From positions 1 through 26,979 of the forward strand of contig JAFCFG010000006.1 of NCBI GenBank assembly GCA_017608725.1: DNA of 26,979 nucleotides. The letters are read 5' to 3'. Position numbers and translations under genes: made by a program. The stretch is from Candidatus Iainarchaeum sp. (lineage in GTDB: Archaea > Iainarchaeota > Iainarchaeia > Iainarchaeales > GCA-2688035). Each line of letters starts with the position of its first letter. Positions within the stretch are counted from its first letter, which is position 1. A model generated the notes under the pieces. The model had not been told where the DNA came from. It ran no database searches and was given only the letters and a program-made list of their open reading frames with translations. Shown one piece after another: positions 2-18,372 of the stretch.

Positions 2-1183
2 TTGATTGACTTGGAGCTGCCACAAGATTATGGCAGCTTTAACGAATTCTACAGCAAGGCAATCAGCTTCAAATCATTCCTGTTAAAGGACGGTTACAGC
101 GAAGACCTGAGAAAGGACTTTGTTGAGTATTACAACAGCTTGACTGCTGCAAGTGAAATCAGAAACACGCTAACCACAACACGCTTTGGCGAAGAAGATG
201 CCTGGGCATTTGGCGAAAAGGGGCCATATGGGTCTGAATACAGCTTGCCGGAAGCCGGCCTGTACGATATCTTCATTGAGAAAAACTTTGGCGACTTTGC
301 AAGTGCAGAGTGGAATATTCAATTCACCCTGAATGAAAAGCTGCAGGAAATTGATGAAGAATTTGCAAAGAACGTCTTCTTTGAACTGCCATTTGACGGA
401 GAAGTGGGCATATTGAACGAAGGCGGCAAAACAAGGCAGGGCTATGGAATCAGCTTTTCAAATAGCCCAGAGCAAGCGGATATGTATCTCACCTACAAGA
501 CAGACCAAGAGAACGCAAACCTCTTTGATTCAACAGGAGGAGAGCAAAAACTTTCAGTTGAGTTTGGTGAAACCTTTGACAAAACAAATTCCGGGCTGAT
601 ATTGAAGGTTGACCTTGACAAAGGCGAATTTACCTACAACCCCTCGGTTGCAACACCGATTGAGATAGAACTTGGAACAAGCAGGGGAACAGAAATAGAG
701 GGAATGCTCTACGAGCTCAGTGGAACAGAGCAGGGAATTCTGAGAAGCCAGGATAGTATCTTTACCTTTAGAAGCGATGCTAAAAACTTCCTTGACCAGA
801 TATATCCACCTTCAGCTGGAATGAACCTCTGCAGAGAGGTAGGCACATTTGAACTCAACCTGCATGGATTCCAGCAACAGCTTGTAGGGCAGAAGACATT
901 CAAGGGAATTGCATTTGTTCCATTTGCAAGGCAATACACTGTAGTGTTTTACTGCAGCCAAGGGGCAGCAAAGGTTACTTCCCTTGACACAGATGAAACT
1001 ATAAACGTTGGCCAAGGCTACAGAACAGGGGAACTTGACTTGAAACTGCATGAGCCAGTTGAAGCAAAAAAGGTTACCCTGCCTTCATTCCTCAACAAAA
1101 TAGAGGAAGAGCAGGTTTGCATAAAAACAGGGCAGGACAGTATTGAACTGCTGTGGAACAAGGAAAAGCTGCTGTCAGGGTAA
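2..1183 (+). CDS. C-terminal part (5'-truncated by the window edge) of a giant surface-protein paralog (paralog 1)
   Basis: Open frame from the window edge to TAA at 1183. It shares ordered motifs with the C-termini of the two downstream giant ORFs: FKSFLLKDGYSEDLRKDF vs FNAYLIKDAYTNDFREDF / FKAYLIKDGYSGDFQRDF; FFELPFDG..RQGYGISF vs FYYLPFDG..RQGYGVNF / FYNLPFNG..RVGYGVNF; NPSVATP vs SPSYATP / SPNYATP; LWN vs FWN / WWN. Confidence 0.85.
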   Translation: MIDLELPQDYGSFNEFYSKAISFKSFLLKDGYSEDLRKDFVEYYNSLTAASEIRNTLTTTRFGEEDAWAFGEKGPYGSEYSLPEAGLYDIFIEKNFGDFASAEWNIQFTLNEKLQEIDEEFAKNVFFELPFDGEVGILNEGGKTRQGYGISFSNSPEQADMYLTYKTDQENANLFDSTGGEQKLSVEFGETFDKTNSGLILKVDLDKGEFTYNPSVATPIEIELGTSRGTEIEGMLYELSGTEQGILRSQDSIFTFRSDAKNFLDQIYPPSAGMNLCREVGTFELNLHGFQQQLVGQKTFKGIAFVPFARQYTVVFYCSQGAAKVTSLDTDETINVGQGYRTGELDLKLHEPVEAKKVTLPSFLNKIEEEQVCIKTGQDSIELLWNKEKLLSG

Positions 1184-4200: not shown

Positions 4201-7200
4201 GAGGCTGCCAGGCATGCAGCCTGGGGAAACAATGCGGTTGATTGTGGGAAAGCCAGGCTATGAAACCTTTGAGAGGGCAATCCAAGTAGATGAGAAGGTC
4301 ATTGCAATAAAGCCAACCAAAATTGGCGTTGCCCTGAACACTAAAACAGCATTGGAAGCGGAAGACCAATTCAGTGTTGAAAACATGACAGCGCTTGATT
4401 TGACTATAAAGGATGTGCGATTAACTGGCAGGGCATATGGCCTGATTGACACTGAAAAGATGAACAACTGGCTGTTTGGGTATATTGGCGAAGTGATTAA
4501 GCCAGGTGAGTTAAGGGAGATGCAGCTGAAGTCATTCCTCAGCGAGAAGGGAAGGAAGCTGCAAGAGAGCAGGAACGTGGAAGCAGAACTTGAAATGACT
4601 GTTGCAAGCAACGGAAGCGAATGGGTGCAAACAGCGCCGGTAAAAATAAACGTTGGCTTGGGCGGGGAAGTGGATGACCCAGCGTGCTTTACAGTAACAA
4701 GAAAAGAGTGGAATGGAAGCACTGAGGGAAAGCCAATAGAGATAGAGTTTGAATTGCAGAACAACTGCAGCAGCGGCGGCATTCCTGTCCAGCTAAAGGA
4801 TATTGCAGCAAAAATTGTGTGGCAAACCAACCAGGTTGGCGAGTATGCACTCAGAACCCAGTACACTGCAATTGGGATAAGGAGCGGCTACTTTAAAAAA
4901 TTCATTGAGGTTATTGAACCAGAGCAAAGCGTTTCAGTTGTGCTGCAGTTCAACGCAAATGGCGGAATAAGAGGCAAGGGAATGGCAGAGATAATATTCC
5001 AAGCAGAGAACAAAACTGACACAACAACCCAGCTGCTGACAGATGAGATTTCATCGGAAATAACGGTGGTGAACCTTGCTGACTGCATTGGATTCGATAA
5101 GGATGTCCTGATAATAAAGCCGGAGAAGACTGGTTCATTTAACATTGACACAGTAAACTGCGGTGCAAGGAACGAGATAAAGCTTGAATCGGACCTTGCC
5201 CTAAGCAAGAGAACCCTGACCTTGGGCGAAACAGACAGCAAAGAGGTAGAGGTTTTTGCCGAGAAAAACATGCCTGGGCAGTATCCAGTAAGGGTATATG
5301 CAAAGGGCAGTGATGACGTGCAATTCAAATTGATTAAAACAATCAGGGCAAGAATCCTGAGCGACAAATGCCTTGAATTAACGAGGTATGAATTCGATGT
5401 ATTTGACAATCCAGAGAATCCATATGACGGCTATGATACAGCTGAATTGATCAACAACTGCTATGACAAGCCAGTGCAGATAACAGTACACTACGATGAG
5501 CATGACTGGGGCGACGCAATGAAAACAGGCGCCCTCTACGGCCTTGTAATGGGGTTGATGGGGGCAATGGGCCAATCAGCAGAAAAAAATGCAGCAGCAG
5601 AAATAGCTGCAGCAAGCAGTGTAACCAAGGGAATTACTCCCAATGGGACAATAGTTGCATTGAAGGGCGGCGTATGGACTGATGCAAAAGGCAGCACTGT
5701 AGCGGGAAATGTTTACCCCTACAGAACAATTGAGTCTGGTGGAGCATACTACAGCGGCTATGACCACGGAGATGGAGACCTATACGATGCCCTGGGAAAC
5801 AAAGTGCTTGACAAGAAAACAACTGGTGCATGGTTCTGGAAAGGCACAAAGTATGTGCCAACTGGTAATATAGCAGGGCCTGAAGCAGCCCAGGGCGGAA
5901 TGCCTGCTTCAACAACGGCAACAGGCAGTGTTGTACTTGGTTCGCCTGCCGGTGCATCCCTCCTGGGCGGAATATTTGGAGGGGGAGGCCCCGGAGGCAG
6001 CCTAGCAGGCAACCTTGTTATGGGCTTGGGCAGCTCGATTTTGGGCAAGCCAAGCTTTTTGGGCTGGGGCCTGCAGGGCTTTTTGGCCGGCACACTTATT
6101 GCATACGAGCAGCAGGATGAGGGGGAGCTTAGCTTTACAACAATTGAGAAAGACGTTGTTTACAGGGATTCTGAATTGCTGTTGCCTGGATTAACGCTTG
6201 ATGAAGACAAGATAGTGGAAACCCCTTCAGAGGACATTATTCTAAGGAAACCGGATGAGGAGGAGGTAAGCACCGAACCCAAAGAAGAGGACAGGAGGCT
6301 GAGCAAGGAAACAAGAAAGCTGTGGTTTTGGAATACGGCTGGTGTTGTGCAGCCAGACCCGGAAACCCCGCTGTACAGAATCCTCAGGGTTGACAATGAG
6401 AGAAGAATCTACAAAACAGAGTATGAAACAGATGAAAAAGGGAACCCCGGCATAGAGATAAAGGAAAGGAAGGACCACAAGGAAAGGTTTAGGCTGCAGT
6501 TCAATGCATTTGACCCGCTGCTCATTGACAGGATTTCAGGGCCAATACCAAACTGCAAGCTTGGCAATGTGGTTGGCGTTACAGGGCCGAATGCTGTTCC
6601 AAGGGTTTCGTTTAACTGGGATTGGCAGAGCATTGGAGAGAGCAGCTGTGTGGAGGGAAACGATGACTACATTTACTGCGATGCCACGCAATTCAGCATC
6701 GTTGTTTTGAAGAAACTGCACAAGCTGCAGGAATTCATTGATATGTACAAGCCGTTTGACTGCCCAAGCCCGGTAACGGCAGCTGCAGTCAAGGAACAGC
6801 CTATGGTTGGAACTGCATATGACGTTGCAATTACAAAGATTCAGGCAAACAAAATTGCGACAAGCGATGCAAACATTGTTGTAACGGTTGAAAGCAACAA
6901 CGGCAAGCAGATGGCTTCCAGCCTGCAAATTTTTCTGAGAGATGACACAGGCACTGTTGTAAAAGGCTGTGACAAGCAATTCAGCCTATTGAGCAGGAAT
7001 GTTGTGAACTGCGAATTCACCGGCCTGGCAGAGGGATTGTACGATGTGCAGGCAACAATTGAGCCTGATTTGTGCCCTGATTGTGAGAATAGCGATTCAG
7101 CAAACGATTCAATAAGTGCACAGCTGTTTGTTGGAGCTGGCGGCGTAGTTGAGTGCGAGCCATTCAACACAAAGAGGCTGCCGTTGTTTATTGAGGCAAC

Positions 7201-8491
7201 AGAGGCAGCAGGGAATGCAGCGTGGAGCAACCAGGAGAGGGAAGAGATACTGGAAACGATTAAATTCAATGCATATTTGATTAAGGACGCTTATACAAAT
7301 GATTTCAGGGAAGACTTTGATTTATTCTGCAAGCAGATGAGCTTCTTTGACTGCCCGGATTACTACACGGATTCAAGCAATGGATTGCACAAGCTGTTTG
7401 CAGACAGGGAGAGATTCAGATTTGATTACAGCATGGCCCCACATGCCCCGGTGGACGCTGGAAAGTACGCTGTTGAAATAAACGTTGAGTTTGGCAACCA
7501 GAACTGGGATTTGTTTGTGGGGGAGGAACCAGATGCAACTGTTTCAATTGAAATGGCGCAATTGAGTGCACCGGAGCCAGAGAGCCCGTTTTACTACTTG
7601 CCATTTGACGGCTTGGTTGGAATAGACAGCGAAAACGGCAGGCAGGGTTATGGAGTAAACTTCAGGCAGACAAGCGAGGAAACAATTAAAATCAACAACA
7701 GCCTGCTTCAGCCAGTCATAAGCACCAATGTTGCAAACAGCACGCCTGTCCTAAACGGATGGATTAACGCAGGCTTTAACGACAGCTTCAGGAGGCTGAA
7801 CCAGGACAAGAGGGGGATCCTGCTTGATGTAGTGGCAGGCACTGATTCAACAAATATTGTTTTAAGCCCAAGCTATGCAACCCCTGTTATGATGAAAGTG
7901 GATTACGAGAAAGGTGAGCACGCTTATGGCTTTTATTCAGTTGAAATTGATGACAGCCCGCAGGTTGCCTTTGAAAGAATGATTCCGTGGAGTGGCATAG
8001 GTCCAAATTGCAGGGATTTTGATGACAGACCGGTTACAGAGGCATGGCAGGATACCTGGGACAAGCATGGGGGCATAAGCGGAAACTTGATTTGCGCTGT
8101 TGGTACAGAGGTAACAGATTATGGAATTGAATGGTGCAATCCAAAGAGAAGCGGCAGCGTTTTCCTTGAAAGCGTTGTCTTTACTCCGCAGAATACCGTG
8201 AGCTTGATGAAGAGAACGGCTTACGGCGATGGCATGACTTTGATTACTGCTGACAACAGAGGCAGCCAAGTAGCATTGAACGGCATTCCTGGCATGCGCT
8301 ACAACAGCTTTGGAACAAGCGAAATTGATTCCATTGAGGATGTGTTTGCATTGGTTAGGGAAAGCAAGGTCTGCTTGGTTGGAGCAGATAACAGGAAAAG
8401 CAACCAGTTCTTCTGGAATCCAAAGATTGTATTGCAAGAACTCAGCCAGGAGAGGACAGAGGCTGAAGAGAGCTGTATCAGGCCAGCGTAG
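1232..8491 (+). CDS. Giant (2419 aa) N-terminally membrane-anchored surface protein with carboxypeptidase-regulatory-like (prealbumin-fold) repeats (paralog 2)
   Basis: ATG at 1232 is preceded by an AGGTG RBS-like motif (1217-1221); the ORF track's TTG at 1211 is a less likely start. A hydrophobic segment (FALFLVVLIALVLFLAFMLPG) is followed by repeated units of the type V.V.D..G..V.GA.V...TD..G (e.g. FRVVDSEGATVEGATVQV, VKVLDQDGKLVKGATVGLY...TDLNG, VTVKDKRTNAELENAIAKL), which match the CarboxypepD_reg-like pattern. The protein contains many paired Cys. Confidence 0.85.
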   Translation: MALEGLKEAYFRLEDRWYAAIDRIDSRIPIHGLIDRIDRIVPSFALFLVVLIALVLFLAFMLPGMLAAGARFSFRVVDSEGATVEGATVQVLMEGKEIALQQTDKLGETAPIVLPLDAEVEIKVSKKDFISTTKTITVSESILLYEVMLEREEEKRYTISLKSSLGQPIREPVILTFSCRNPAIASWEVPVVSGSATVTEPANCQGLIASVRGQGFEPIDSVDVTLSNQTIYLQEIVSGNATITVELLFNNQTISEEVTVYLYRIDDATGAEIGPIESAVSENGIATFSRQPAQYFVKSSGYGNFAAASSASFSVSAGEQKNIQLHLERNVVGYVKLKILDEITGAAVDDATVFLRLGGEEIDSKKSSADGNGFVEFPVSVDTAYSIIVDHPAYCLKVVHDVNPSTSVKHIELKPFTVDCGGKLKVKVLDQDGKLVKGATVGLYTESGFSAGFSTQVTDLNGITVFEGAPSGNYKAFAFKGSSSGWSEVEHFVQRAAEKTTLTAVLDVKNGTVRVKVIDKEGEPMQFSEVAFVDAATNEIIGGGAKPVQDVNGVVELITRADKQVYIVARNPGYTNFTSIVKPVLSNSTQNFTAVLEKEIIQGEIEIEFRGVYKNGKSVSALARGEKYTALFNLKIPANKSYDEIGMHVRTGSHTMMELDELVLREINAPGKANILKATTYSQGDGYAFDSRNLSSDEAKWANIKWNEFQTGIIEVAVEFQVKEATRQTEIQAGELELSYRAWAVENGLYKRNPLDNDLGEAESVPGKEALYAKTKQEIFQIGLETICDELFCFSASILDIEDGLIESATEGYNGKVFKEYKLSFTILNNSEFETNSYPNAELKILNVDEGLLLQDYKAYGAQGQLVEGIVSGSETKWIAVGDMEPNNTVAGNINFTPQKSTGGAITIQLRSMQRIQFEKSIMINATAEKQLNVVAAPELLPSGTQNDLTVTVKDKRTNAELENAIAKLKDRFGAIVAEKTTNRMGIAVLRLPGMQPGETMRLIVGKPGYETFERAIQVDEKVIAIKPTKIGVALNTKTALEAEDQFSVENMTALDLTIKDVRLTGRAYGLIDTEKMNNWLFGYIGEVIKPGELREMQLKSFLSEKGRKLQESRNVEAELEMTVASNGSEWVQTAPVKINVGLGGEVDDPACFTVTRKEWNGSTEGKPIEIEFELQNNCSSGGIPVQLKDIAAKIVWQTNQVGEYALRTQYTAIGIRSGYFKKFIEVIEPEQSVSVVLQFNANGGIRGKGMAEIIFQAENKTDTTTQLLTDEISSEITVVNLADCIGFDKDVLIIKPEKTGSFNIDTVNCGARNEIKLESDLALSKRTLTLGETDSKEVEVFAEKNMPGQYPVRVYAKGSDDVQFKLIKTIRARILSDKCLELTRYEFDVFDNPENPYDGYDTAELINNCYDKPVQITVHYDEHDWGDAMKTGALYGLVMGLMGAMGQSAEKNAAAEIAAASSVTKGITPNGTIVALKGGVWTDAKGSTVAGNVYPYRTIESGGAYYSGYDHGDGDLYDALGNKVLDKKTTGAWFWKGTKYVPTGNIAGPEAAQGGMPASTTATGSVVLGSPAGASLLGGIFGGGGPGGSLAGNLVMGLGSSILGKPSFLGWGLQGFLAGTLIAYEQQDEGELSFTTIEKDVVYRDSELLLPGLTLDEDKIVETPSEDIILRKPDEEEVSTEPKEEDRRLSKETRKLWFWNTAGVVQPDPETPLYRILRVDNERRIYKTEYETDEKGNPGIEIKERKDHKERFRLQFNAFDPLLIDRISGPIPNCKLGNVVGVTGPNAVPRVSFNWDWQSIGESSCVEGNDDYIYCDATQFSIVVLKKLHKLQEFIDMYKPFDCPSPVTAAAVKEQPMVGTAYDVAITKIQANKIATSDANIVVTVESNNGKQMASSLQIFLRDDTGTVVKGCDKQFSLLSRNVVNCEFTGLAEGLYDVQATIEPDLCPDCENSDSANDSISAQLFVGAGGVVECEPFNTKRLPLFIEATEAAGNAAWSNQEREEILETIKFNAYLIKDAYTNDFREDFDLFCKQMSFFDCPDYYTDSSNGLHKLFADRERFRFDYSMAPHAPVDAGKYAVEINVEFGNQNWDLFVGEEPDATVSIEMAQLSAPEPESPFYYLPFDGLVGIDSENGRQGYGVNFRQTSEETIKINNSLLQPVISTNVANSTPVLNGWINAGFNDSFRRLNQDKRGILLDVVAGTDSTNIVLSPSYATPVMMKVDYEKGEHAYGFYSVEIDDSPQVAFERMIPWSGIGPNCRDFDDRPVTEAWQDTWDKHGGISGNLICAVGTEVTDYGIEWCNPKRSGSVFLESVVFTPQNTVSLMKRTAYGDGMTLITADNRGSQVALNGIPGMRYNSFGTSEIDSIEDVFALVRESKVCLVGADNRKSNQFFWNPKIVLQELSQERTEAEESCIRPA

Positions 8492-8660
8492 GCAAAAGGG
8501 GAAAATAGGTTGGTTAAATTATTTTTCTGGGGAAAATTAAAAAAGGGAAACGGAAAAAAGGGGAAATTAAAAAAAGGGAAACGGAAAAAAGGGGAAAAGG
8601 GAAATTAAATTAAAAAATTAGGAAAAAGGGGAAGGGAAAAAGGGAAAATTTTAATTAATC
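8492..8660 (+). repeat. Purine-rich low-complexity intergenic tract with an imperfect ~31-bp tandem duplication (8531-8594)
   Basis: GGAAAATTAAAAAAGGGAAACGGAAAAAAGG is followed directly by GGAAATTAAAAAAAGGGAAACGGAAAAAAGGGG. The tract is almost entirely A/G plus short T runs. Confidence 0.75.
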
Positions 8661-8689
8661 AAATTCGTTAATGTAATTGGTTTTGTGCT

Positions 8690-11600
8690 ATGGGCTTGAA
8701 AGATGCGTATGTTGCATTAGAGGATAAATGGTATGGTTTCTTAGACAGGGTTGATGCCCACATCCCAATATACAAGATAGTTGACCCAATCGACAGGGTT
8801 GTCCCATCCCTCCTTCTCTTTATTGCAGTAATTGTTGCATTGCTTGCTTTCTTTCTTATAATGCCAGGGCTTCCCATGACAGGGCAGGTTTGTTGCAGAG
8901 GTAATAAACAGCAAGGAAACAGGTGCTGACGGCAGCATTAAATTCAATGCACCCTTTAATTCAAGCATTGAGATAAGGATCGAAGAAGTAACAGTTGATG
9001 GCGTAGAATACGAGGCGAAGCATATAAAGTTTCAGGTTGCTGAGGAAGCTGATTTTAGCCAAAAAATTATTTTGAAAGAGAAAGGGCTACCATTCATTAA
9101 GAGAACCATCCTGTTCCAGAACAGCGCTGGCGAAAGAATAACAGGTGAACTCATCAAAATAAGGCTTAGCTGCCAGAATAACCTGGCCCAGCTGCCCCAA
9201 ACAATAGTGGCTGACAACGACAAAGACGGGAGCATTGCAGTAAATATGCCCAGTGACTGCGGAATACTTTACGCAGACATCATAGCGCCAAGTAAATTCA
9301 AGCAGATGAGCTACACAATCTCAAACAGTACGCAGGCAATAAAGCTAGAAAGCCTAGATGTTGCAAAAGGCTCATTGAGGGTAAAGATAAAGGACGGCCA
9401 GGGAAACCTGGTTACCGGAACCAACTTCAGCGTCAAACTCATGGACAGCGCTGGCTCACAGGTCAGTGAAAAATACAGCCTGAACTACGGTGAAGCCTTT
9501 TTCACTGATGTAACAGCTGGAAGCTACAGCGTAAGCGTTGAAGACTTGGACGGAGACTATGGGCTTGCATCCAAGAGCAATGTTCCTGTTCCTGTTGATG
9601 ATACAGCAATAGTTGAAGTGGTTGTAAGCAAAACAGTTAAGGCAACCATTAACGTAAGCGTTGTTGACAAGGCAACCCAGCAGGCAATTCCAAACGCAAC
9701 TGTAAAACTGTTTGATTCAAGCGGCAGAACACTTAGTGAAAAGAACACTGGAGACCAGGCAGAGGTTGTTGTCTTCTATCTGACAGACAACAAGGATTAC
9801 ACTATTATTGCATCGCATGATGATTACTTGTATGAAACAGCCAGCTTGCAGCAGGTAAGCAACCTGGATGTTAAATTTGAATTGGACAGAATAACAGCCC
9901 AAAACAGTGGAAGGGTAAAGGTAAGGGTATTGGACGAGGATGGCCTGGTTGTCCACAACGCAAAGGTCAAGTTGCGTTTTCTGGAAACGGAAATGCTTGC
10001 TCCCTACCCGGCAAAAACCACTGACAGAAACGGCATAGCAAGCTTTGTTGGGGTAAAGGAAGGAAGCTATTACGCTTACGTGGAGAAGTATCCTGCCTTT
10101 GGAGACAACAAGCCTGAGGGCAAGGAAATAGACATCAGGGAGGTAACATACTTTACAGTTCACCTCTACATTGGCAACAGCATGGTTCAGGTAAGGGCAG
10201 AGGACGAAGACGGAATGCCGGTGCACGAGGCAGAGGCAGAGTTCTTTGCAGAGAATGGGGAAAGCCTGGGAAAGATTCCTTTGCCAGAGGGCATTGGCCA
10301 GTATGAACTGAAAGCGGACAAAAGGGCATATGTTGTTGTAAGGCACGATAACTTCATGTCAGTGCAGACAATGCCACAGCAGCTTTGGCCAAACCAGACA
10401 ATCAGCTTTACTGCAAAAATGGAGCCAAGGCTTGTTCTGGGAGACCCAAAAATAGAGTTTGAGGGGATATTCAACAAATCAGGAAAACAAGTGCAGCAGC
10501 TGGATGCAGGAAACAGGTATTTTGCAAGGTTTAAGTTGAGCGTGCCAGAGGCAGGCAATTTCAGCCAGGGGGGCTTCCATTTTAGAATAGGGGATGAAAG
10601 ATTGCTTGTAAATGAGCCCCTGGTGATAAAGGACGTTATTGCAGGGGACATAAAGGCTCCGTTGAAGGGAACGAGCTTTACCCCGCCAATTGGATATGAG
10701 AAAGACAGCCAAAATTTAACAGAGGGAGACGCGAAATGGGTTAACATATGGTGGTCAGACCTTCAACCAATGAATTATTATTTTGGGTTTGAGATAAGGG
10801 TAAAGAGCCAGATAACCCCCTACACAAAGCTTGCAATGCACTACAGGGCATGGGCAAAGGACGAGGCAGAAGACTATGTCAGGGTTCCATATGATTCCAT
10901 CCTTGGAACTGCTGAAACAACAGCAGAAAAGCAGGCGCTTTATGCAAAAACCCTTGACCTGCAGTTCCTGGAGGGCTCACCCAGTGACTGCCAGGAGGAC
11001 TTTTGCTACAGTGGAGAAAGCATACTTGACGAGGACAGGGGGCTTTACATTTATGAGCCCTATCAGATGAGGGCAGGGGCCAAGCACAAGCTGACATTTG
11101 ACATATTGAACAACAGTGAAAGGCAGTACGACAGCAGTGAATTATACATAACAGTGGATGGTCTAACCATAACAGGATATGAAATAGTAAACGCTTCAGG
11201 GCGAGAAACAGGTGCAGAGAACATTGCAGGGAAAAAGGTTGAAGCCATTGATTTGGGTGAATTCACCAAGGGGAAGAGTGTCAGCAGCAGGGTTTCTTTC
11301 AGCGCCTCTTCAGCTGGGAATGCGGCAATTGAAGTAAAGGTAATTGCAGATGGCAGGGTTGTTTTCCAGAGGAACATTAGTGCACAGGTGGTTAGCGAAA
11401 GGGAAATGCAGGTTTCGGTTGACCCAGAAACAATACCGGCTTATATAGCAAACGATTTGCAGGTTTACATTAGGGAAAATGCCGATGGGCAGCACTTTGA
11501 CGTTGACAACGCACTTGTAAGGCTTACAATAACGCATCCAGACAAAACAACGGAATTTTACACTTCTATTACAAACGGTTTTGGAAAAACAAGCTTTAAC

Positions 11601-14600
11601 CTGCCTGCTTTGCAGCCAAACGCAAAAATAGTGGTTGAGGCAGAGAAGCCAGAGTATTATGCAGAGCCGCTTGTTTTGTTTGTTGACAGCAACGTTCTTA
11701 GGTTCTCTCCTGGCAAAGTGAATTCAAATTTGGATACCAGGGGAGTGAAAGAGCAGGTGTTTACTGCTGAGGCCAGGAATGTTATTGGAATTGACCTCAA
11801 AATCAAGAACATTGCTTTAAGCGGGGCATTCAAGGGGTTGCTTGACAGGGGAACAATGGCAAACTTTGCAAAACAGTACATTGGAATGACAATTGAGGGC
11901 AGCCAAAGCGCTGTAAGGGAGTTCTTCAAAACAAAGCTGAGTGCAAACGCAAGGGAACTGCTTTTAAGGAACGAAAAACTGTTGGGCGAATACGTTGTTA
12001 CTGCAACAAACAGCGACGAAAGCATTACCTGGGACATAATTGTGCCATTGCAGGTTAGGGTGGCTGTTGGCGATTTGCCTGACAATGCACCCTGCCTGAT
12101 AATTTCAAGGGAGAAGTGGGATGCCTCCACTCTTGAGAACAGTGCAACTATTGAATTTGAGGTACAGAACAACTGCATGGCAGCCGGCAGCTTTGTTGAA
12201 TTGGACAATTTGCAGGCAATGCTTGAATGGCAGGGAGACGCAATTGGAACAGTTGAGCTAACATTGATTGAAGCAGAAACCGGCAGCAGCAACAGCGAGA
12301 TTCTAAGGCCTGGAATGTGGGTGCAGTTGTTCAAAACAATTCAGCCTGATTCAATCTACTACGCAATGCTTACCTTTACACCAAAGCAGGGCCATTTGGG
12401 TGAGACAGCGAAATTCACTGTGGACATAGATGGCCAGACAACCACAAGCGGGGGCAGTGCCTTTGTTGGCTCAAAGCCAAGCAAAATCACCTCAAACATT
12501 AAAGTCGTGAATTTGCAGCAGTGCATCACATACGAGGGAGCAGAGAACGTTGTTGAATTAAGAGCTGGGCAAAACGATGGGGCATTTACTGTTGATTCAA
12601 GTGATTGCGGTAACACTGGGGTAACAATTGAATTATGCAGGCAAAATCCAAATTGCAGCGGGGGAGCAGAGGGAGGAATTGAAGTAACCCCCCTAAGCTT
12701 TACCCTAAGGCCAGACAACCCAACAAAGGAAATACTTGTAAGCAGAAGAAGCATTCCGGGAATGTATGGAATCAACGTTGAGGCAAAAGTAGCAGGCACC
12801 TCTTTCAGAGAGGTAAAGAATATTGATGTATTGGTTGAACCAGAATCAAGCAATGAATTTGCTCTTGACAAATATGAACTGAGTTTGAAGGGGATTGGGG
12901 CAAAGGACGAGGTAAAGCTGACAAACAAGGCATTGAGTGAAACTGTTTCAGTTGATGCTTCTGCATGCGACTGGGGCACAGCAGAGGAAGAAGGAATGTT
13001 TGACTTGGCTGGAGCTGGGATGGGTGCTGCTATTGCAGCATTGTTGGGCGCAAAAACAGCGATAGAGCAGGCAAGCGAAGCAACAAACGCAGTTAACCTT
13101 GCAAGAACCACGGATTTAAGCAATGCGCTTGAACAGGCAAGAGCAGCAAACCAGGCAACAGAAGCTGCAAAGGCTGCAAGCGAGGCAGCGAAAACTGCTT
13201 CGGAAACAGCCCAAAATGAGGCAGTGAAGTCAGCAAATAGAGCTGTTCAGCAGGCAGCAGCAAAAGCAGGCAGCATTCCAGCAACATGTGATGCAGGCAC
13301 TAACACATACTTGGGCAATGCAAGTAGCAATACAGGTGCAGCAGACACAACTGCAAGCAGCTCATTTATTTCAAGTATCGGAAGCATGATCGGGTCAATT
13401 TTAAGTGGTGTTGGAAAAATTGGCAGCGGCGTATTTAACACTATTACAGGAAGGGAAACAGCATCAGCCAATGAGGCCTGGCAGGTAAGCACTTCCCCAA
13501 TGAACTCAACAAAGGACCTTGACAACAGCATTGCTGATACAGATAGCGCGATTTCGCATGTAACTGATAACAGGGCAGAACTGGTAAAAAGCCGGGCTGA
13601 TGCTGAAACAATGCTGGCAGAACTGAACAATGCAAAAATACAGCTTGCCGGGGCAAGTGCATCAATAGATTCCAGCATTGGCATATGCACTGCTGATTGC
13701 GCACTAGAACCAGCAGGGCCCTGCTGCCCGCACCTTGGCACTGCCCAGGCTGCCAAAGGGGAAATAAATGCTGCCATTGCAGCAGTTGACAACGCTATTG
13801 CAAAAACAGAGGCTGCAAAGGCAGAAATTGCGGAAGCAATTAGTTCAGCAGATAGCTCCCTTGCTGAGCTTCAAAGTACGCAAACACTGCTTCAAAACGC
13901 AAAAACCTCAATGGGCAAGCTTGGCAAAACAATGGCAGCAACAGAGGGGGCAAGCAGCTTTAACAAAGGCAAGTTCTTTGGCATTTTGGGTACGTATGCT
14001 GCATTGGGTGCAATTGCCGGTGGCCTAATGGGCGGCGTATTTGGAGATGACCCCTGTGACCAAAGGGTTACTGCAAACCTAATGGACTATGTGATTAACC
14101 TGAAGGATGATAATTTGCCACTGGCTGTTGACAAAGAGGGAGTTACTGCGGAGTGGAAAACAGATGGTGCACAGGTCTTTGGCACTTATGATAGCCAGGA
14201 AGTTGGAATTGAATTTAATAATGTTTCGGTTGAACCGGGAAAGCCGACCTATGCAACAGTAACCATTAGTGCAACAAGGCATTACCATGCAAGCCCAACA
14301 ACTATTAGCAGGGGCGACTCAGGATTTGGGCCATTTAATGTTCCTGACCAAAGAAGCGAAACCTACACCCAGAAGTTCCACTTGAAGCTTAACACAAAGG
14401 ATATCTCGCTTGAAATACCCCCCCTGCCAGAGGAAGAAGGCTGCCTGATGGGAACCCTTGTAGGGAGAACAGGCAGGGAAGCCCTGCCAAAAATAAAGCT
14501 TAATTGGAGCTGGGATGACCAAACAGGGATTGCAGCAGATGAGTGCGATTATTTGAACGATGAAGCAGTTTACTGTGATGCAACCCAGTTTGGCATAATG

Positions 14601-16139
14601 GTGAACAAAAGGCTGAGGGCATTGGAGCAATTCCTTTCAGCGAATACTCCCCTGCCCTGCCCGCCAAATCCCGCAATAGAATCCCTGGAAGAGATTGGGG
14701 AGGAATACAATGCAGCCCTGGACGAGCTGGGCATGGTGCCGTTTGTTCCGATGGACGTGGACAGTTGTTGGATGCCCCGTTCTACTGTTCTGTTTGACGG
14801 AAAGCCTGCTTTGCTTTACTACGTTGAAGCAAATTTGGATAGCATTACTTGGACTGAGGAAGTGCCTGATTTGGATTCCCTGAGAAAGCTGCTGCATTTC
14901 AAGGCCTATTTGATTAAGGACGGCTACAGTGGGGATTTCCAGCGTGACTTTGTTGAATTCTATACGACAACCAGCTTTTATGACCCTCCGGAATGGTTTG
15001 TTGGTTCAGGGGAGAGATACGCTGACCTGTTCAGTGACCAGGATATTATGAGGTTTAGAACAAGGTATGCTGGGGATGAAAGGCTGTCTTCAGCTGGCTT
15101 GTATGATGTGGTTCTGGCAGTCAATTACTTCAATGAGGACTGGCAGTTGTTCAGGCTGGGTTTGCCTGATGCAAAGATTGTTGTTGACCTGCATCTTATT
15201 GAGAACCCTTACCCTGACTCAATATTCTACAACCTGCCGTTCAACGGAAACATTGGAAAGGAAAGTAGCAACGGCAGGGTTGGCTACGGTGTGAATTTTG
15301 AGAACAGGAAGGACAACATCCTGATTACCGAGTACCCGGGCGAATCAATTGACACTGCTGCAATTAGCGGCAGCACTACCATAAGCGTTATTGAAACAGA
15401 TGTTGAAACTGACATAAAGAAAATCAATGCAAGCGCTTCCAACAGGGGATTTTTGATGAATGTGGCAGAGGGCTCAGGCAGTGTAAAGGAAATAACCTTC
15501 AGCCCAAATTATGCCACTCCTGTTTTGCTGCAGCTCAGCCATGGCAGGGACGAAGAGCCCTTCTCTGCGTTCTATCAGCTGCAGGAAACCCTGACGCCTG
15601 TAGAGGTTGGAACAAACCTTGGGTTTTGGACTGGCTCAGGAGAATGCTTGGACTTTACTGGCATTCCAGTATTTGAGGCATTTGACTTCAAGGCAGACAG
15701 GGAAGCAACTAGCAGCGACAGGCTAAGCAACTGGGAGTTTGCCTATGCAGTTGACTGGGACAAGGCAGACTACAGCGGCAATGTTTACCTTAAAACAGTG
15801 TTCTTTACCCCAACAAACGGCAGCTATAATTTGAAGGCACTGCAGCCAACTGAACTAAAGTTTATTACACCAAGCAGTGGCAGCCAGCAGGTAGTTGAAT
15901 TGGAGGGAATTAGGGGCATGCAGCACAACAGCAGGCAGGGGATGGACAATGCAAAGAGCCTGCAGGACCTCTTTGATTTGGTGGAAAGCAGGCATGTCTG
16001 CGTTACAAATTCAGGGGCAAGGACAGCGTTTTGGTGGAATCCGAAAACATTGTACGAAACAGCCGGCCCAAACACAAGCATTAGGGACTTTGAAGAAGGC
16101 CTTGTTGCTGGCCAAAGCTGCATTGGATACAGCAGTTGA
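8690..16139 (+). CDS. Giant (~2480 aa) surface protein (paralog 3), interrupted by a frameshift near 8880-8895 (possible pseudogene or assembly error)
   Basis: ORF 8690-8929 (MGLKDAYVALEDKWYGFLDRVDAHIPIYKIVDPIDRVVPSLLLFIAVIVALLAFFLIMPG) aligns residue for residue with the N-terminus of paralog 2. A second frame is open from 8880 (after TGA at 8877-8879) to TGA at 16139 and reads ...VAEVINSKETGADGSIKFNAP...LKEKGLPF, running into the tracked 9072 ORF. Domain order and motifs (DWG, YCDATQF, YLIKDGY) match paralog 2. Confidence 0.8.
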
Positions 16140-16235: not shown

Positions 16236-16450
16236 AAACCAGCCTTATTTTGGGGAAAAATCAATTAACAGGGGGCCAGTTTCTTAAAGCGCCCTGTAGA
16301 AATGATTCATAAATGCAAAATTTGAATCCCTTAAATCGGCTTTAAACGGCAAAATAGCAGCAAGGCATTTATAAACAAAAATAGAATTTCTACACAGGAT
16401 TTCTTAAAGCAAATTAATTTAAATCAGAACAATTATTCTAGTTATTGGTT

Positions 16451-16843
16451 ATGGTTCAAGATATTTTGCCAATGCTCTTTGCTTTGTTTTCCTTTTCAGA
16501 GTTTTTTGGAGACATGACCTTTGTTTTGAAGATATTTGTTTTAATGACAATAATCAGCTTTATTGTAATGCATTTGGGAACAGGGCCCCTGGCAATCATA
16601 TTGATTTTGGGGATAAGCTACTTTGTTTTGATTGGTGCTTTTTGGTTTTTTGGCTCAGTCTATGTTCTAATGATGCTGCTGATGTTCGGAGTTTCAGGCA
16701 TTTTAATTGATTTCTTTTTTGTTGGAGGGATGGGAACGCCGCAAGAGCAGACACCAATAAGCCATGGTATTGACTTGAGGGCAAAGAGGGGGGCAATGAT
16801 GGCGCATGGCAGAGGCAGCCCCAGAAGAAGAATGATGAGATGA
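16451..16843 (+). CDS. Small multi-pass membrane protein (130 aa) with a basic C-terminal tail
   Basis: ATG at 16451 lies two codons after the tracked TTG. About 95 aa are almost entirely hydrophobic and are followed by an Arg-rich tail (RAKRG...RGSPRRRMMR). It contains the LG-x3-LAI-x7-Y motif shared with the next two ORFs. Confidence 0.75.
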   Translation: MVQDILPMLFALFSFSEFFGDMTFVLKIFVLMTIISFIVMHLGTGPLAIILILGISYFVLIGAFWFFGSVYVLMMLLMFGVSGILIDFFFVGGMGTPQEQTPISHGIDLRAKRGAMMAHGRGSPRRRMMR

Positions 16844-16849
16844 AAAAAG

Positions 16850-17188
16850 ATGGCTTTTTCAATGAACCAGCAGGGGAACATGCTTTTGTTTATTTTCATT
16901 GCCTTCCTTATCTTAGCTGTGCTGCCCCCCATTGTAATGATGCTGTTTCCAGCGGCAGACATCATAATCAGGGTAATACTTGTTTTGCTGATTTTTTCAA
17001 CTGTAAGGGGCTATCTTGGAGGGGGCATTCTCTCGCTTATAATTAGCGGCGTGCTAATTTACTTCCTTGTAATCAAATGGGCTTACTTCACTGCATCCAT
17101 GTATGTGTTCTTTTACTTCATAATGACCTTTGCAATTACCTCAGTGGTGATTTGGGGAATCGGAATGAATATAGGGAAAAGGGGGTAG
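16850..17188 (+). CDS. Small multi-pass membrane protein (112 aa)
   Basis: Hydrophobic throughout, with 3-4 predicted helices. It starts 6 nt after the previous stop codon (operon-like) and carries LGGGILSLIISGVLIY. Confidence 0.8.
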   Translation: MAFSMNQQGNMLLFIFIAFLILAVLPPIVMMLFPAADIIIRVILVLLIFSTVRGYLGGGILSLIISGVLIYFLVIKWAYFTASMYVFFYFIMTFAITSVVIWGIGMNIGKRG

Positions 17189-17243
17189 AGTAACTGCTAA
17201 CCAGACTTTATAAATGGGCCAATAAATGCTGTATTAGGGGGCA

Positions 17244-17260
17244 GAGAAGGTTTTATAATA
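17244..17260 (+). promoter_or_regulatory. Candidate archaeal BRE/TATA promoter
   Basis: Purine-rich GAGAAGG immediately followed by TTTTATAATA, about 45 nt upstream of ATG 17301. An AAGGTG RBS-like motif (17285-17290) lies between them. Confidence 0.4.
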
Positions 17261-17300
17261 AAGAAACGGCATTAATTTCTATGTAAGGTGCATCAAAAAA

Positions 17301-17564
17301 ATGTTTTTTGCATTGCTGCAATTGAACGAGGCAACCCTGTACACTGATCTGTGGACAGTTCTCTCACTGTTCTACCTTGTGTGGATCTTTGGCTGGGCAA
17401 AGAATGCACTGGGTTCAGCAAAGCTTGCAATACTGTTTGCGGTAATAGTTGTTTACCTGACTTTCTTTTTGCACCCTGAACTGGTCTGGTTGCCAGTGCT
17501 GATAATAATTTTTGCTGCCCTTGGAAAAGGCGTGTTTGAAAAAGCAAACGTGTTCAAGGACTGA
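17301..17564 (+). CDS. Small multi-pass membrane protein (87 aa)
   Basis: AAGGTG upstream of the ATG, three hydrophobic segments, and the motif LGSAKLAILFAVIVVY. Confidence 0.8.
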   Translation: MFFALLQLNEATLYTDLWTVLSLFYLVWIFGWAKNALGSAKLAILFAVIVVYLTFFLHPELVWLPVLIIIFAALGKGVFEKANVFKD

Positions 17565-17576
17565 GCTGGAAAGGGA

Positions 17577-17921
17577 GTGGTTTTTTTGGATACATTTACC
17601 TTCATGGTTGCTATTCTCCTAATGATGCTTGCAGTGCAATTCAACCAAAACTGGCTTGTTTTTGCAATTGTTGCAATAATGATTCTAACCATGCGGAGTC
17701 TTAGCACCACGCTTTTCCTAATAATTGCAACAATTGTAATGTTTGTTTCAAAAGAGTATCTTAAGGAATACTGGCCATTTGTTCTGTTTGGCCTAATAAT
17801 CCTTGCGCTGTTGATTGGCATTGGAAAGAAGGACGGGGGCCAGCCGGAGGCGATGCCAATGGACCTGTACGGCGGTGGCTTTGATGCAGGGGGCTTTGGC
17901 GGCTTACCAGGGGGGCTTTGA
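17577..17921 (+). CDS. Small multi-pass membrane protein (114 aa) with a Gly-rich C-terminal tail
   Basis: GTG start after GGAAAGGGA, about four hydrophobic segments, and the tail GGGFDAGGFGGLPGGL. Confidence 0.8.
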   Translation: MVFLDTFTFMVAILLMMLAVQFNQNWLVFAIVAIMILTMRSLSTTLFLIIATIVMFVSKEYLKEYWPFVLFGLIILALLIGIGKKDGGQPEAMPMDLYGGGFDAGGFGGLPGGL

Positions 17922-17986
17922 AATCGGGGTTGTTTGATTAGGAGGGGCTTTGAGGTCAGGGTTATTCTATTAGGGGGCTTTGAAAT
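17909..17986 (+). repeat. Degenerate ~31-bp tandem triplication beginning across the stop codon at 17919-17921
   Basis: GGGGGCTTTGAAAT at 17911-17924 and 17973-17986, and GGGGCTTTGA at 17944-17953. Confidence 0.6.
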
Positions 17987-18372
17987 TGTTGTTTTATCAG
18001 ATGAGGCAGAGCATTATCTTTCTCCTGATAATAGCAGGGTTTGGATTCATTGCAATTGACCAGCCGCTGCCGGCTGGCCTTTGCTTTATTGCAGCTGTTC
18101 TCCTCCTAATAGTGAAAACAGTGAAGAAAACAGTTCAAGCAGCAGGGGCAACAGCAGGGGTAATGGGCTACGGCGTTAAAGAGGAAGTCAGCAAAGCAAA
18201 GGGCAATTACCCTGACCCAAACGTTTTCAAGGAGGGCATTGAAAACGCAATTGACTTAACAGCACAGCAGGTGCACGCACCGGACACGCACAAGTTCAAG
18301 TACAAGGGAGTTGGCGCATTTGGTGAGGGATGCAACAAACTGATTGACGCATTCAAAAGGGTTTTCAGATAG
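17980..18372 (+). CDS. Membrane protein (~130 aa) with two N-terminal hydrophobic helices and a soluble C-terminal region
   Basis: Hydrophobic hairpin IIFLLIIAGFGFIAI...LCFIAAVLLLIV followed by a charged region. The start is uncertain (TTG 17980 or ATG 18001). Confidence 0.75.
   Translation: MKLLFYQMRQSIIFLLIIAGFGFIAIDQPLPAGLCFIAAVLLLIVKTVKKTVQAAGATAGVMGYGVKEEVSKAKGNYPDPNVFKEGIENAIDLTAQQVHAPDTHKFKYKGVGAFGEGCNKLIDAFKRVFR

Follow-up and report, generated by a model that had tools for sequence, protein, structure and literature searches.

The stretch of DNA analysed here (the window) is the entire 26,979-bp contig JAFCFG010000006.1 of Candidatus Iainarchaeum sp., part of a 1.14-Mb genome that is 82% complete. 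The contig carries three giant paralogous genes in tandem: the tail of paralog 1 (window 2-1183, the last 393 amino acids (aa) of the gene), paralog 2 (P0002, 2426 aa) and paralog 3, whose main open frame (P0001, 9072..16139 on the + strand, open from 8880) is listed with 2355 aa. The Pfam domains recognised in the giant paralogs, all of them in the N-terminal halves, are CarboxypepD_reg, SpaA and Big_1-type Ig-like domains, and paralog 3, with Ig-like and CarboxypepD_reg domains, has the make-up of a giant surface protein. Our subject is a helical span in paralog 3 (nucleotides (nt) 12969-14056), which an earlier reading of the sequence alone (the original prediction) had described as a harpoon-like, membrane-inserting element. 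We found that the span consists of a predicted four-helix rod between two conserved glycine-zipper helices, and that it occupies a site of widely varying content in a family of giant archaeal proteins.

Anatomy and predicted fold of the helical span

The span corresponds to residues 1300-1661 of paralog 3, exactly 362 residues between C1299 and C1662. Every motif that the original prediction had listed was recovered at its place in the translation of 9072-16136: the DWG motif at residues 1300-1302, LAGAGMGAAIAALLG at 1312-1326, FISSIGSMIGSILSGVGKIGSGVFNTITG at 1432-1460 (nt 13365-13451), the cluster CTADC...GPCCP at 1538-1553, and FFGILGTYAALGAIAGGLMGGVFG at 1635-1658. The order of hydrophobic helix, heptads, amphipathic helix, cysteines and hydrophobic helix was likewise as described. 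Although the span makes up only 15% of the 2355-aa chain, three of the four Kyte-Doolittle hydropathy peaks above 1.3 fall inside it, with 19-residue values (KD19) of 1.58 at residues 1309-1327, 1.35 at 1432-1450 and 1.64 at 1635-1653. Alanine accounts for 21.8% of the span as against 7.3% in the remainder of the protein, and there is moderate enrichment of a 3.5-residue periodicity, which in 27% of 28-residue windows lies above the 95th percentile of shuffles.

To describe the fold we used two AlphaFold2 models, one of residues 1230-1770 with 9 aligned sequences and one of residues 1151-1850 with 34 aligned sequences and a mean predicted local distance difference test score (pLDDT) of 81. The two models agree that the core is a single intramolecular antiparallel up-down four-helix bundle with pLDDT of 90-98. 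The "coiled coils" of the original prediction are thus replaced by one bundle within one chain, while the beta-type sequence that it had noted around the insert is borne out, since both flanks of the span are predicted as beta domains with pLDDT of about 90. For the identity of each segment we took the mean pairwise identity among seven orthologs.

All features of the span lie on the + strand. The loop begins at the boundary cysteine C1299 (12966..12968), which sits in an A-C-D-W-G motif at the loop base and is invariant in ortholog alignment A1. The first hydrophobic helix, H1 (residues 1309-1327; 12996..13052), follows an acidic EEEG cluster and is a marginally hydrophobic small-xxx-small helix with zipper positions G1314, G1318, A1322 and G1326. 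It runs on without a break into rod helix 1, which extends through residue 1399 (13053..13268; model helix 1317-1399, pLDDT 90-97, identity 36%). After a distal loop holding C1406 (residues 1400-1409; 13269..13298) comes rod helix 2 (residues 1410-1464; 13299..13463; pLDDT 86-96, KD19 1.35, identity 26-29%), the second half of which is the Ser/Gly-rich amphipathic segment at 1432-1460. Rod helix 3 (residues 1476-1543; 13497..13700; pLDDT 93-98) and rod helix 4 (residues 1552-1628; 13725..13955; pLDDT 92-98) are joined by a Cys-rich distal turn (13683..13730) with C1538, C1542, C1551 and C1552, where the orthologs have variable Cys clusters. The second hydrophobic helix, H5 (residues 1634-1658; 13971..14045), carries the glycine zipper G1646, G1650, G1654 and G1658, and the loop ends at the boundary cysteine C1662 (14055..14057) in a D-D-P-C-D-Q motif.

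In both models H1 (about 1315-1337) and H5 (about 1627-1657, with a modelled helix at 1634-1651) have pLDDT below 50 and show no predicted packing on the rod or the beta domains. The original prediction had allowed that its hydrophobic helices might prove to be packed inside a soluble bundle. Because AlphaFold2 did not bury H1 and H5, this does not apply to them; it does apply to the central amphipathic segment, which forms the body-proximal half of rod helix 2, has Ile, Leu, Phe and Met at a/d-like spacing, and is packed in the bundle with pLDDT of about 86-91. In the predicted models C1406 and the C1538/C1542/C1551/C1552 group cluster together at the polar distal tip of the rod. The models thus describe a rod with its greasy parts at the base, beside the protein body; a parallel coiled coil tipped by hydrophobic residues is not what they show. 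The lengths of its helices suggest that the rod would measure about 8-10 nm.

The conservation of the span follows the same division. The paralog 3 orthologs have 2493-2503 aa and 37-59% identity, and those that span the whole insert are 37-50% identical. H1 and H5, each with its boundary, are the most conserved parts (78% and 72% identical, respectively), followed by the beta flanks (62-63%), and the rod is the least conserved (26-39%, with 26-36% for its arms and 29% for the central amphipathic segment). The rod core was detected by phmmer in the closest orthologs only, and the central segment of ortholog P0008 has no hydrophobic character at all. Of the membrane-type helices proposed originally, H1 and H5 stand as glycine-zipper-type, marginally hydrophobic helices, and the central one, packed and poorly conserved, does not.

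Three relatives, P0017, P0018 and P0020, are arranged otherwise. Their central insert segment is a strongly hydrophobic 19-20-aa helix (KD19 1.9-2.3) with Lys residues after it, and their H1 and H5 are weakly hydrophobic (best 17-residue values, KD17, of 1.2-1.4). The topology of these three agrees with none of the simple models.

Transmembrane glycine zippers of the pattern (G/A/S)xxxGxxxG were reportedly described by Kim et al. in PNAS in 2005. Patterns of this type occur in both hydrophobic helices, as G1314-x3-G1318-x3-A1322-x3-G1326 in H1 and G1646-x3-G1650-x3-G1654-x3-G1658 in H5, so that two such helices are paired as a hairpin; their KD19 values of 1.58 and 1.64 are borderline for membrane embedding. 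The bacterial two-helix Gly-zipper families (PF05433, PF13488, PF13441 and PF13436) gave no hidden Markov model (HMM) match to P0001:1290-1680 at E up to 1. Those families are small bacterial lipoproteins, whereas here the hairpin is split by a 300-aa rod midway in a 2,500-aa archaeal protein.

Searches with the insert itself returned no name. The insert had no Pfam match at E up to 1, no NCBIfam match, and no PDB sequence match at E up to 1; the C-terminal 696 aa of paralog 3 matched nothing in the PDB sequence, Pfam and NCBIfam searches; and a feature search of the ESM Atlas with the insert gave a best score of 0.75 to an unnamed cluster, which provided no lead. The insert and the C-terminal region are unnamed by HMM libraries or solved structures, and the family is uncharacterised.

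In fold comparisons, the best Foldseek match in the PDB was ClyA (E 1.5e-3, TM-score 0.23/0.42); SmhB, AhlB/C and MakA came next. The rod shares with the ClyA family (ClyA 1QOY, AhlB 6GRJ, SmhB, MakA and the Hbl/Nhe components) an elongated up-down bundle of similar length, of the kind seen in the four- or five-helix tail of those toxins, and in both cases hydrophobic elements accompany an otherwise soluble rod. However, the defining hydrophobic head of the ClyA family lies between the third and fourth long helices, far from the termini, where paralog 3 has the polar Cys-rich turn 1538-1553, and the hydrophobic segments of the insert lie at the rod end nearest the termini. An exhaustive search of 48,161 representative chains scored a maquette highest (15.5), then AhlB (14.1) and TTYH1 (13.3), so the similarity to ClyA is not above that to designed four-helix bundles. 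No ClyA-family sequence match (HMMs of the HlyE, Hemolysin BL-binding, Nhe or Mak type, or PDB sequences) was found at E up to 1. After re-alignment, the exhaustive search and the topology comparison, we rejected membership in the ClyA family. As modelled, the rod is a generic long four-helix bundle whose ClyA likeness is real but unspecific, and a ClyA-type or harpoon-like head is contradicted by hydrophobic elements at the rod base and a polar, Cys-rich distal tip.

In the AlphaFold DB clusters the rod matched the signalling bundles of methyl-accepting chemotaxis proteins (MCPs). Those bundles are formed by a dimer of hairpins, whereas the rod is a single chain; we rejected an MCP identity because no MCPsignal HMM match was found, and put the likeness down to composition and generic bundle shape. 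TTYH1-3 have an extracellular bundle within a five-helix membrane protein and no sequence-family match to the rod. The top 50 matches in the viral library (BFVD) were phage tail fibre and tape-measure-like proteins with TM-score of at most 0.35, with no fusion glycoprotein among them. Class I viral fusion proteins have two heptad repeats that assemble into a trimeric six-helix bundle; the paralog 3 monomer is predicted as an intramolecular four-helix bundle, and its heptad periodicity is only moderately enriched. In the fusion proteins the anchor directly follows the second heptad repeat and cleavage exposes a fusion peptide, whereas the only strong anchor of paralog 3 is N-terminal, about 1,400 aa upstream, and some 690 aa of beta-rich protein lie C-terminal of H5; no class I fusion-type cleavage site was identified in paralog 3, although no search was aimed at one. 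Phage tape measure proteins and type III secretion system translocators gave no HMM match (for the former, the weak fold matches above are all that was found), and the neighbouring genes encode giant paralogs, small membrane proteins and PolB rather than phage or secretion proteins. Extracellular helical bundles stapled by disulfides, with cysteines stabilising their ends, are known from the plant pectin methylesterase inhibitor (1X8Z/1X91) and the trypanosome haptoglobin-haemoglobin receptor (4E40). These proteins are free-standing or glycosylphosphatidylinositol-anchored, not loop insertions, and have no sequence relationship to the rod, in which the disulfides are putative.

The variable mid-protein site of the giant-protein family

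Paralog 3 belongs to a family of giant proteins that share an N-terminal anchor, Ig-like repeats, a conserved C-terminal region and a mid-protein site, all of which it has. The family was matched in 128 of the 151 sampled genomes of the phylum, usually with 3-7 matches per genome, and in 51 of the 55 high-quality genomes. It is present in every sampled family of the order to which the window belongs and had no match in the other sampled orders of the class (five sampled families, f25-f29). In the genome studied here it takes up about 2% of roughly 1.1 Mb. This share of the genome, together with the wide occurrence, suggests that the family is probably a core part of the cell envelope.

We read the homologous mid-protein site in 30-odd family members. 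It is bracketed by C-D-W and D-x-C, followed by DY[VI]INL, and has three kinds of content. Some members have a hydrophobic helical hairpin of 56-79 aa (KD17 2.3-3.45), in one case two greasy arms linked by a C-L-P-C turn. Others have helical Ala/Ser/Thr-rich inserts of 300-420 aa with Cys-rich turns, resembling the span of paralog 3, in which H1 and H5 are weaker (KD17 1.1-1.9). The rest have unrelated sequence, such as the Gly/aromatic insert of paralog 2 or helical inserts of 560-593 aa, or, as in paralog 1 of relatives, no hairpin. In paralog 2 (5504..6110, + strand) the site is occupied by another insert, about 200 aa long and with much Gly and many aromatic residues; Gly-rich hydrophobic segments flank it, and both boundary cysteines are absent. 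Judging from these sequences, the hairpin helices appear to be family-wide and only the roughly 300 aa between them to be a lineage-specific payload grown in the hairpin turn. The "insert" of the original prediction would accordingly be confined to this payload, its two hydrophobic helices being part of the family-wide hairpin. That other members have just a hairpin or unrelated content at this site is more in keeping with a tolerant loop or cassette than with a dedicated machine. The searchable literature describes neither the hairpin nor the cysteine bracket nor the rod.

The boundary cysteines co-vary: over 34 family members both are present in 30, neither in 3, and only one member is discordant. 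Cysteine counts are even in 23 of the 28 long inserts, the commonest count being 6. These sequences are related, so that the parity and co-variation counts are not independent and yield no proper statistic.

Further variants of the site were seen in relatives. Paralog 1 of two same-family relatives, L032 (G032:C18) and L033 (G054:C35), has 2629 and 2714 aa and an N-terminal anchor with KD19 of about 3; it has no mid-protein hydrophobic hairpin, and its region 1205-1911 could not be aligned with paralog 3. A shorter branch of 1672-1757 aa, L018, L022 and L023 (G010, G031 and G016), has a helical insert of 560-593 aa at the same site, with Asn, Glu and Tyr substitutions in the glycine zipper equivalent to H5. 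L018 and L022 have 8 and 6 N-x-S/T sequons, near the shuffle expectation, one of them within the L018 Cys cluster.

The best-named relative of the window is a "Candidatus Diapherotrites archaeon". The closest described proteins are those of Candidatus Forterrea (Diapherotrites), which has five clustered large membrane-anchored proteins with a proposed role in cell-cell interaction (Probst & Banfield 2018, PMC5905446). By their description they resemble the present family in coming from the same phylum-level group, in that several exceed 1,800 aa and are anchored, in their adjacent genes, and in taking up a few percent of a genome of about 1 Mb. Unlike for this family, no internal hairpin, rod or cysteine bracket is described for them, and the present family, as noted above, is unmatched beyond its own order among those sampled in the class.

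Sidedness and role of the rod

We propose, with a probability of about 0.5, that in this span a conserved glycine-zipper hairpin, serving as a membrane or assembly contact, displays a variable rod that probably lies outside the cell. On this reading a DPANN archaeon with a small genome, of the Diapherotrites/Iainarchaeota type, has three giant envelope proteins encoded in tandem, paralog 3 among them, and in each of these about 1,400 aa of Ig-like domains come after an N-terminal membrane anchor. At a fixed mid-protein position most family members have a loop with a cysteine pair closing its base and two hydrophobic, glycine-rich helices inside it; the hairpin turn would in this lineage have expanded into a four-helix rod of about 300 aa, capped at its far end by a cysteine cluster. 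H1 and H5 would be the conserved working parts, making tight small-xxx-small packing at the membrane interface or between subunits of a three-paralog assembly, with the basal cysteine pair clamping the loop. The rod may then be a stable, exposed and fast-diverging module that disulfides hold together, most likely on the outside of the cell, acting as a spacer or a display surface toward other cells or viruses. Nothing tested points to unfolding, firing or a metastable spring-loaded state of the rod.

Several observations argue for this reading. The co-variation of the boundary cysteines, including the lack of both in paralog 2, is expected for a loop-closing disulfide, and the even cysteine counts, mostly 6, point to disulfide pairs more than to 4-Cys metal sites. 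H1 and H5 of P0001, with KD19 values of 1.58 and 1.64, are far less hydrophobic than the true anchors of the family, which have 2.5-3.6. Relative L023 has a 593-aa helical insert in which no segment is membrane-competent (KD19 is at most 1.22, whereas the anchor of the same protein has 3.22), and this insert must therefore share a side with the ectodomains. Weighing an extracellular against a cytoplasmic rod, we arrive at roughly 2:1 for outside.

The placement of the rod outside the cell has evidence against it, which lends weight to a serious though less probable alternative, in which H1 and H5 cross the archaeon's own membrane and the rod projects into the cytoplasm as a docking or signalling arm, comparable to the helices of MCPs or TTYH proteins. 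Through their zippers H1 and H5 would then pack with other transmembrane helices, those of paralog 2, of the N-terminal anchors or of the five small membrane proteins whose genes lie downstream. The short, strongly hydrophobic hairpins of other members, fully membrane-competent at the same site (KD17 2.3-3.45), are almost certainly inserted in the cell's own membrane as transmembrane hairpins; if so, their turn, the site of rod growth, would be cytoplasmic, which is hard to square with an extracellular rod. In the models H1 and rod helix 1 form a single unbroken helix and there is almost no break between H5 and helix 4, charged residues delimit H1 and H5 at about 16-24 residues with acidic residues on the body side and Lys on the rod side, and their conservation exceeds that of usual lipid-facing helices and would fit a packed transmembrane bundle. 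Mean charges are acidic in the outer flanks (-1.7 and -1.8) and +0.4 and -0.2 on the rod side, a mild point in the same direction; by the positive-inside rule the inner flanks are barely positive, and such counting is weak evidence for sidedness. N-glycosylation sequons occur at 1.18 times expectation in the ectodomains and at 0.86 in the inserts, which thus have no enrichment, but the counts are ambiguous as a test of sidedness, helices being poor glycan sites in any case. The public runs containing the window sequence are hydrothermal vent metagenomes, and thermophilic archaea can form cytoplasmic disulfides, so the cysteine argument is weakened if the organism is thermophilic; the kinship among the sequences weakens it as well. 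On the other side, H1 and H5 are marginally hydrophobic (KD19 about 1.6, with an uncharged core of 16 residues in H1), the mostly even cysteine counts and the variable, Cys-knotted tip suggest disulfides, the rod diverges much faster than the ectodomains, the helical insert of L023 at the same site has no membrane-competent flank, and no Pfam MCPsignal or HAMP match was found.

Two further explanations were weighed. That the span is a latent membrane-active device, whose soluble rod hides or positions Gly/Ala-rich helices that insert into a foreign membrane on host contact as an anchor, a pore or a fusion element, seems unlikely to us. Marginally hydrophobic Gly/Ala-rich helices could pass the translocon unretained, H1 and H5 are unburied in the models and have a fusion-peptide-like composition, relatives have acidic, Trp-rich motifs before the helices (WWDWKG, WFDWPK), and the central helix of P0017, P0018 and P0020 is strongly hydrophobic; the presumed host dependence and the cell-cell interaction role proposed for the clustered large membrane-anchored Diapherotrites proteins (PMC5905446) would also suit it. 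If true, it would be an archaeal cell-surface counterpart of alpha-pore-forming toxins or of the viral fusion machinery, with a variable rod tuned to different hosts. However, the position of a ClyA-type head is polar and Cys-rich here, the rod has its hydrophobic segments at the base instead of the tip, the central amphipathic helix is bundled and poorly conserved, the viral library yielded no viral fusogen, no toxin or fusogen HMM matched, and the cassette is replaced by unrelated sequence in the paralogs. Thus neither the comparison with pore-forming toxins and fusogens, which the original prediction had put forward, nor any other test run here indicates a harpoon, a pore or a fusion device. 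A structural neck or stalk with no membrane role appears even less probable: H1 and H5 of several subunits, in a homo-oligomer or a three-paralog hetero-oligomer, would form a buried glycine-zipper neck, with the rod serving as a rigid spacer in an envelope that resembles an S-layer. Protein-protein packing is implied by how strongly H1 and H5 are conserved, small-xxx-small motifs are found in soluble helix packing too, the tandem three-paralog arrangement is conserved, and the near-universal presence of the family in the order suggests a core envelope component. Yet the hairpins of other members are far too hydrophobic unless embedded in a membrane, and paralog 1 has no hairpin.

DPANN archaea presumably rely on physical contact with other cells, and to our knowledge the proteins that make this contact are almost unknown. 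A variable rod on a conserved hairpin matters in this setting since a hairpin that tolerates very different payloads at one site, probably bracketed by a disulfide, is a concrete experimental handle on the sidedness of the payload, on the nature of the hairpin (a second anchor, a joint in an assembly or an element active on membranes) and on a possible tracking of hosts or viruses by the fast-evolving rod. Should the rod be a plain spacer, the result would still be a useful annotation of a large uncharacterised family.

Integrity of the paralog 3 gene and its neighbours

The listed open frame of paralog 3 does not include the true 5' end of the gene. A conserved cytoplasmic leader of about 40 aa and the N-terminal membrane anchor are encoded at 8690..8890 (+ strand), and the N-termini of orthologs align to the frame from the ATG at 8690. 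In the window this part is out of frame with the body, 65 nt being absent between 8890 and 8891. A same-genus ortholog is about 68 nt longer at the equivalent point, and an independent Logan contig of the best-holding run, X1, has 65 additional letters at 8890/8891. Because 65 mod 3 is 2, these letters join the leader and anchor with the body in a single frame of about 2,504 codons, matching the orthologs. From the sequences, then, the paralog 3 gene is most likely intact, and the frameshift at the junction (window 8886-8902) an assembly artefact or a minor variant or allele.

The locus is syntenic in relatives, with three giant genes followed by five small membrane proteins and then PolB. The small proteins 3' of the giant genes have 2-3 predicted membrane helices each and no family match, and are candidate partners of the hairpin helices H1 and H5. 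They lie at 16445-18372 in the window, at 17711-19721 in L002 and at 17531-19515 in L003, numbering four to five, with their order kept in the orthologous contigs. The spacer between paralogs 2 and 3 (window 8491-8689) is A/G-rich and of low complexity, and contains two copies of a near-perfect direct repeat of about 40 nt, GGGGAAA(A)TTAAAAAA(A)GGGAAACGGAAAAAA.

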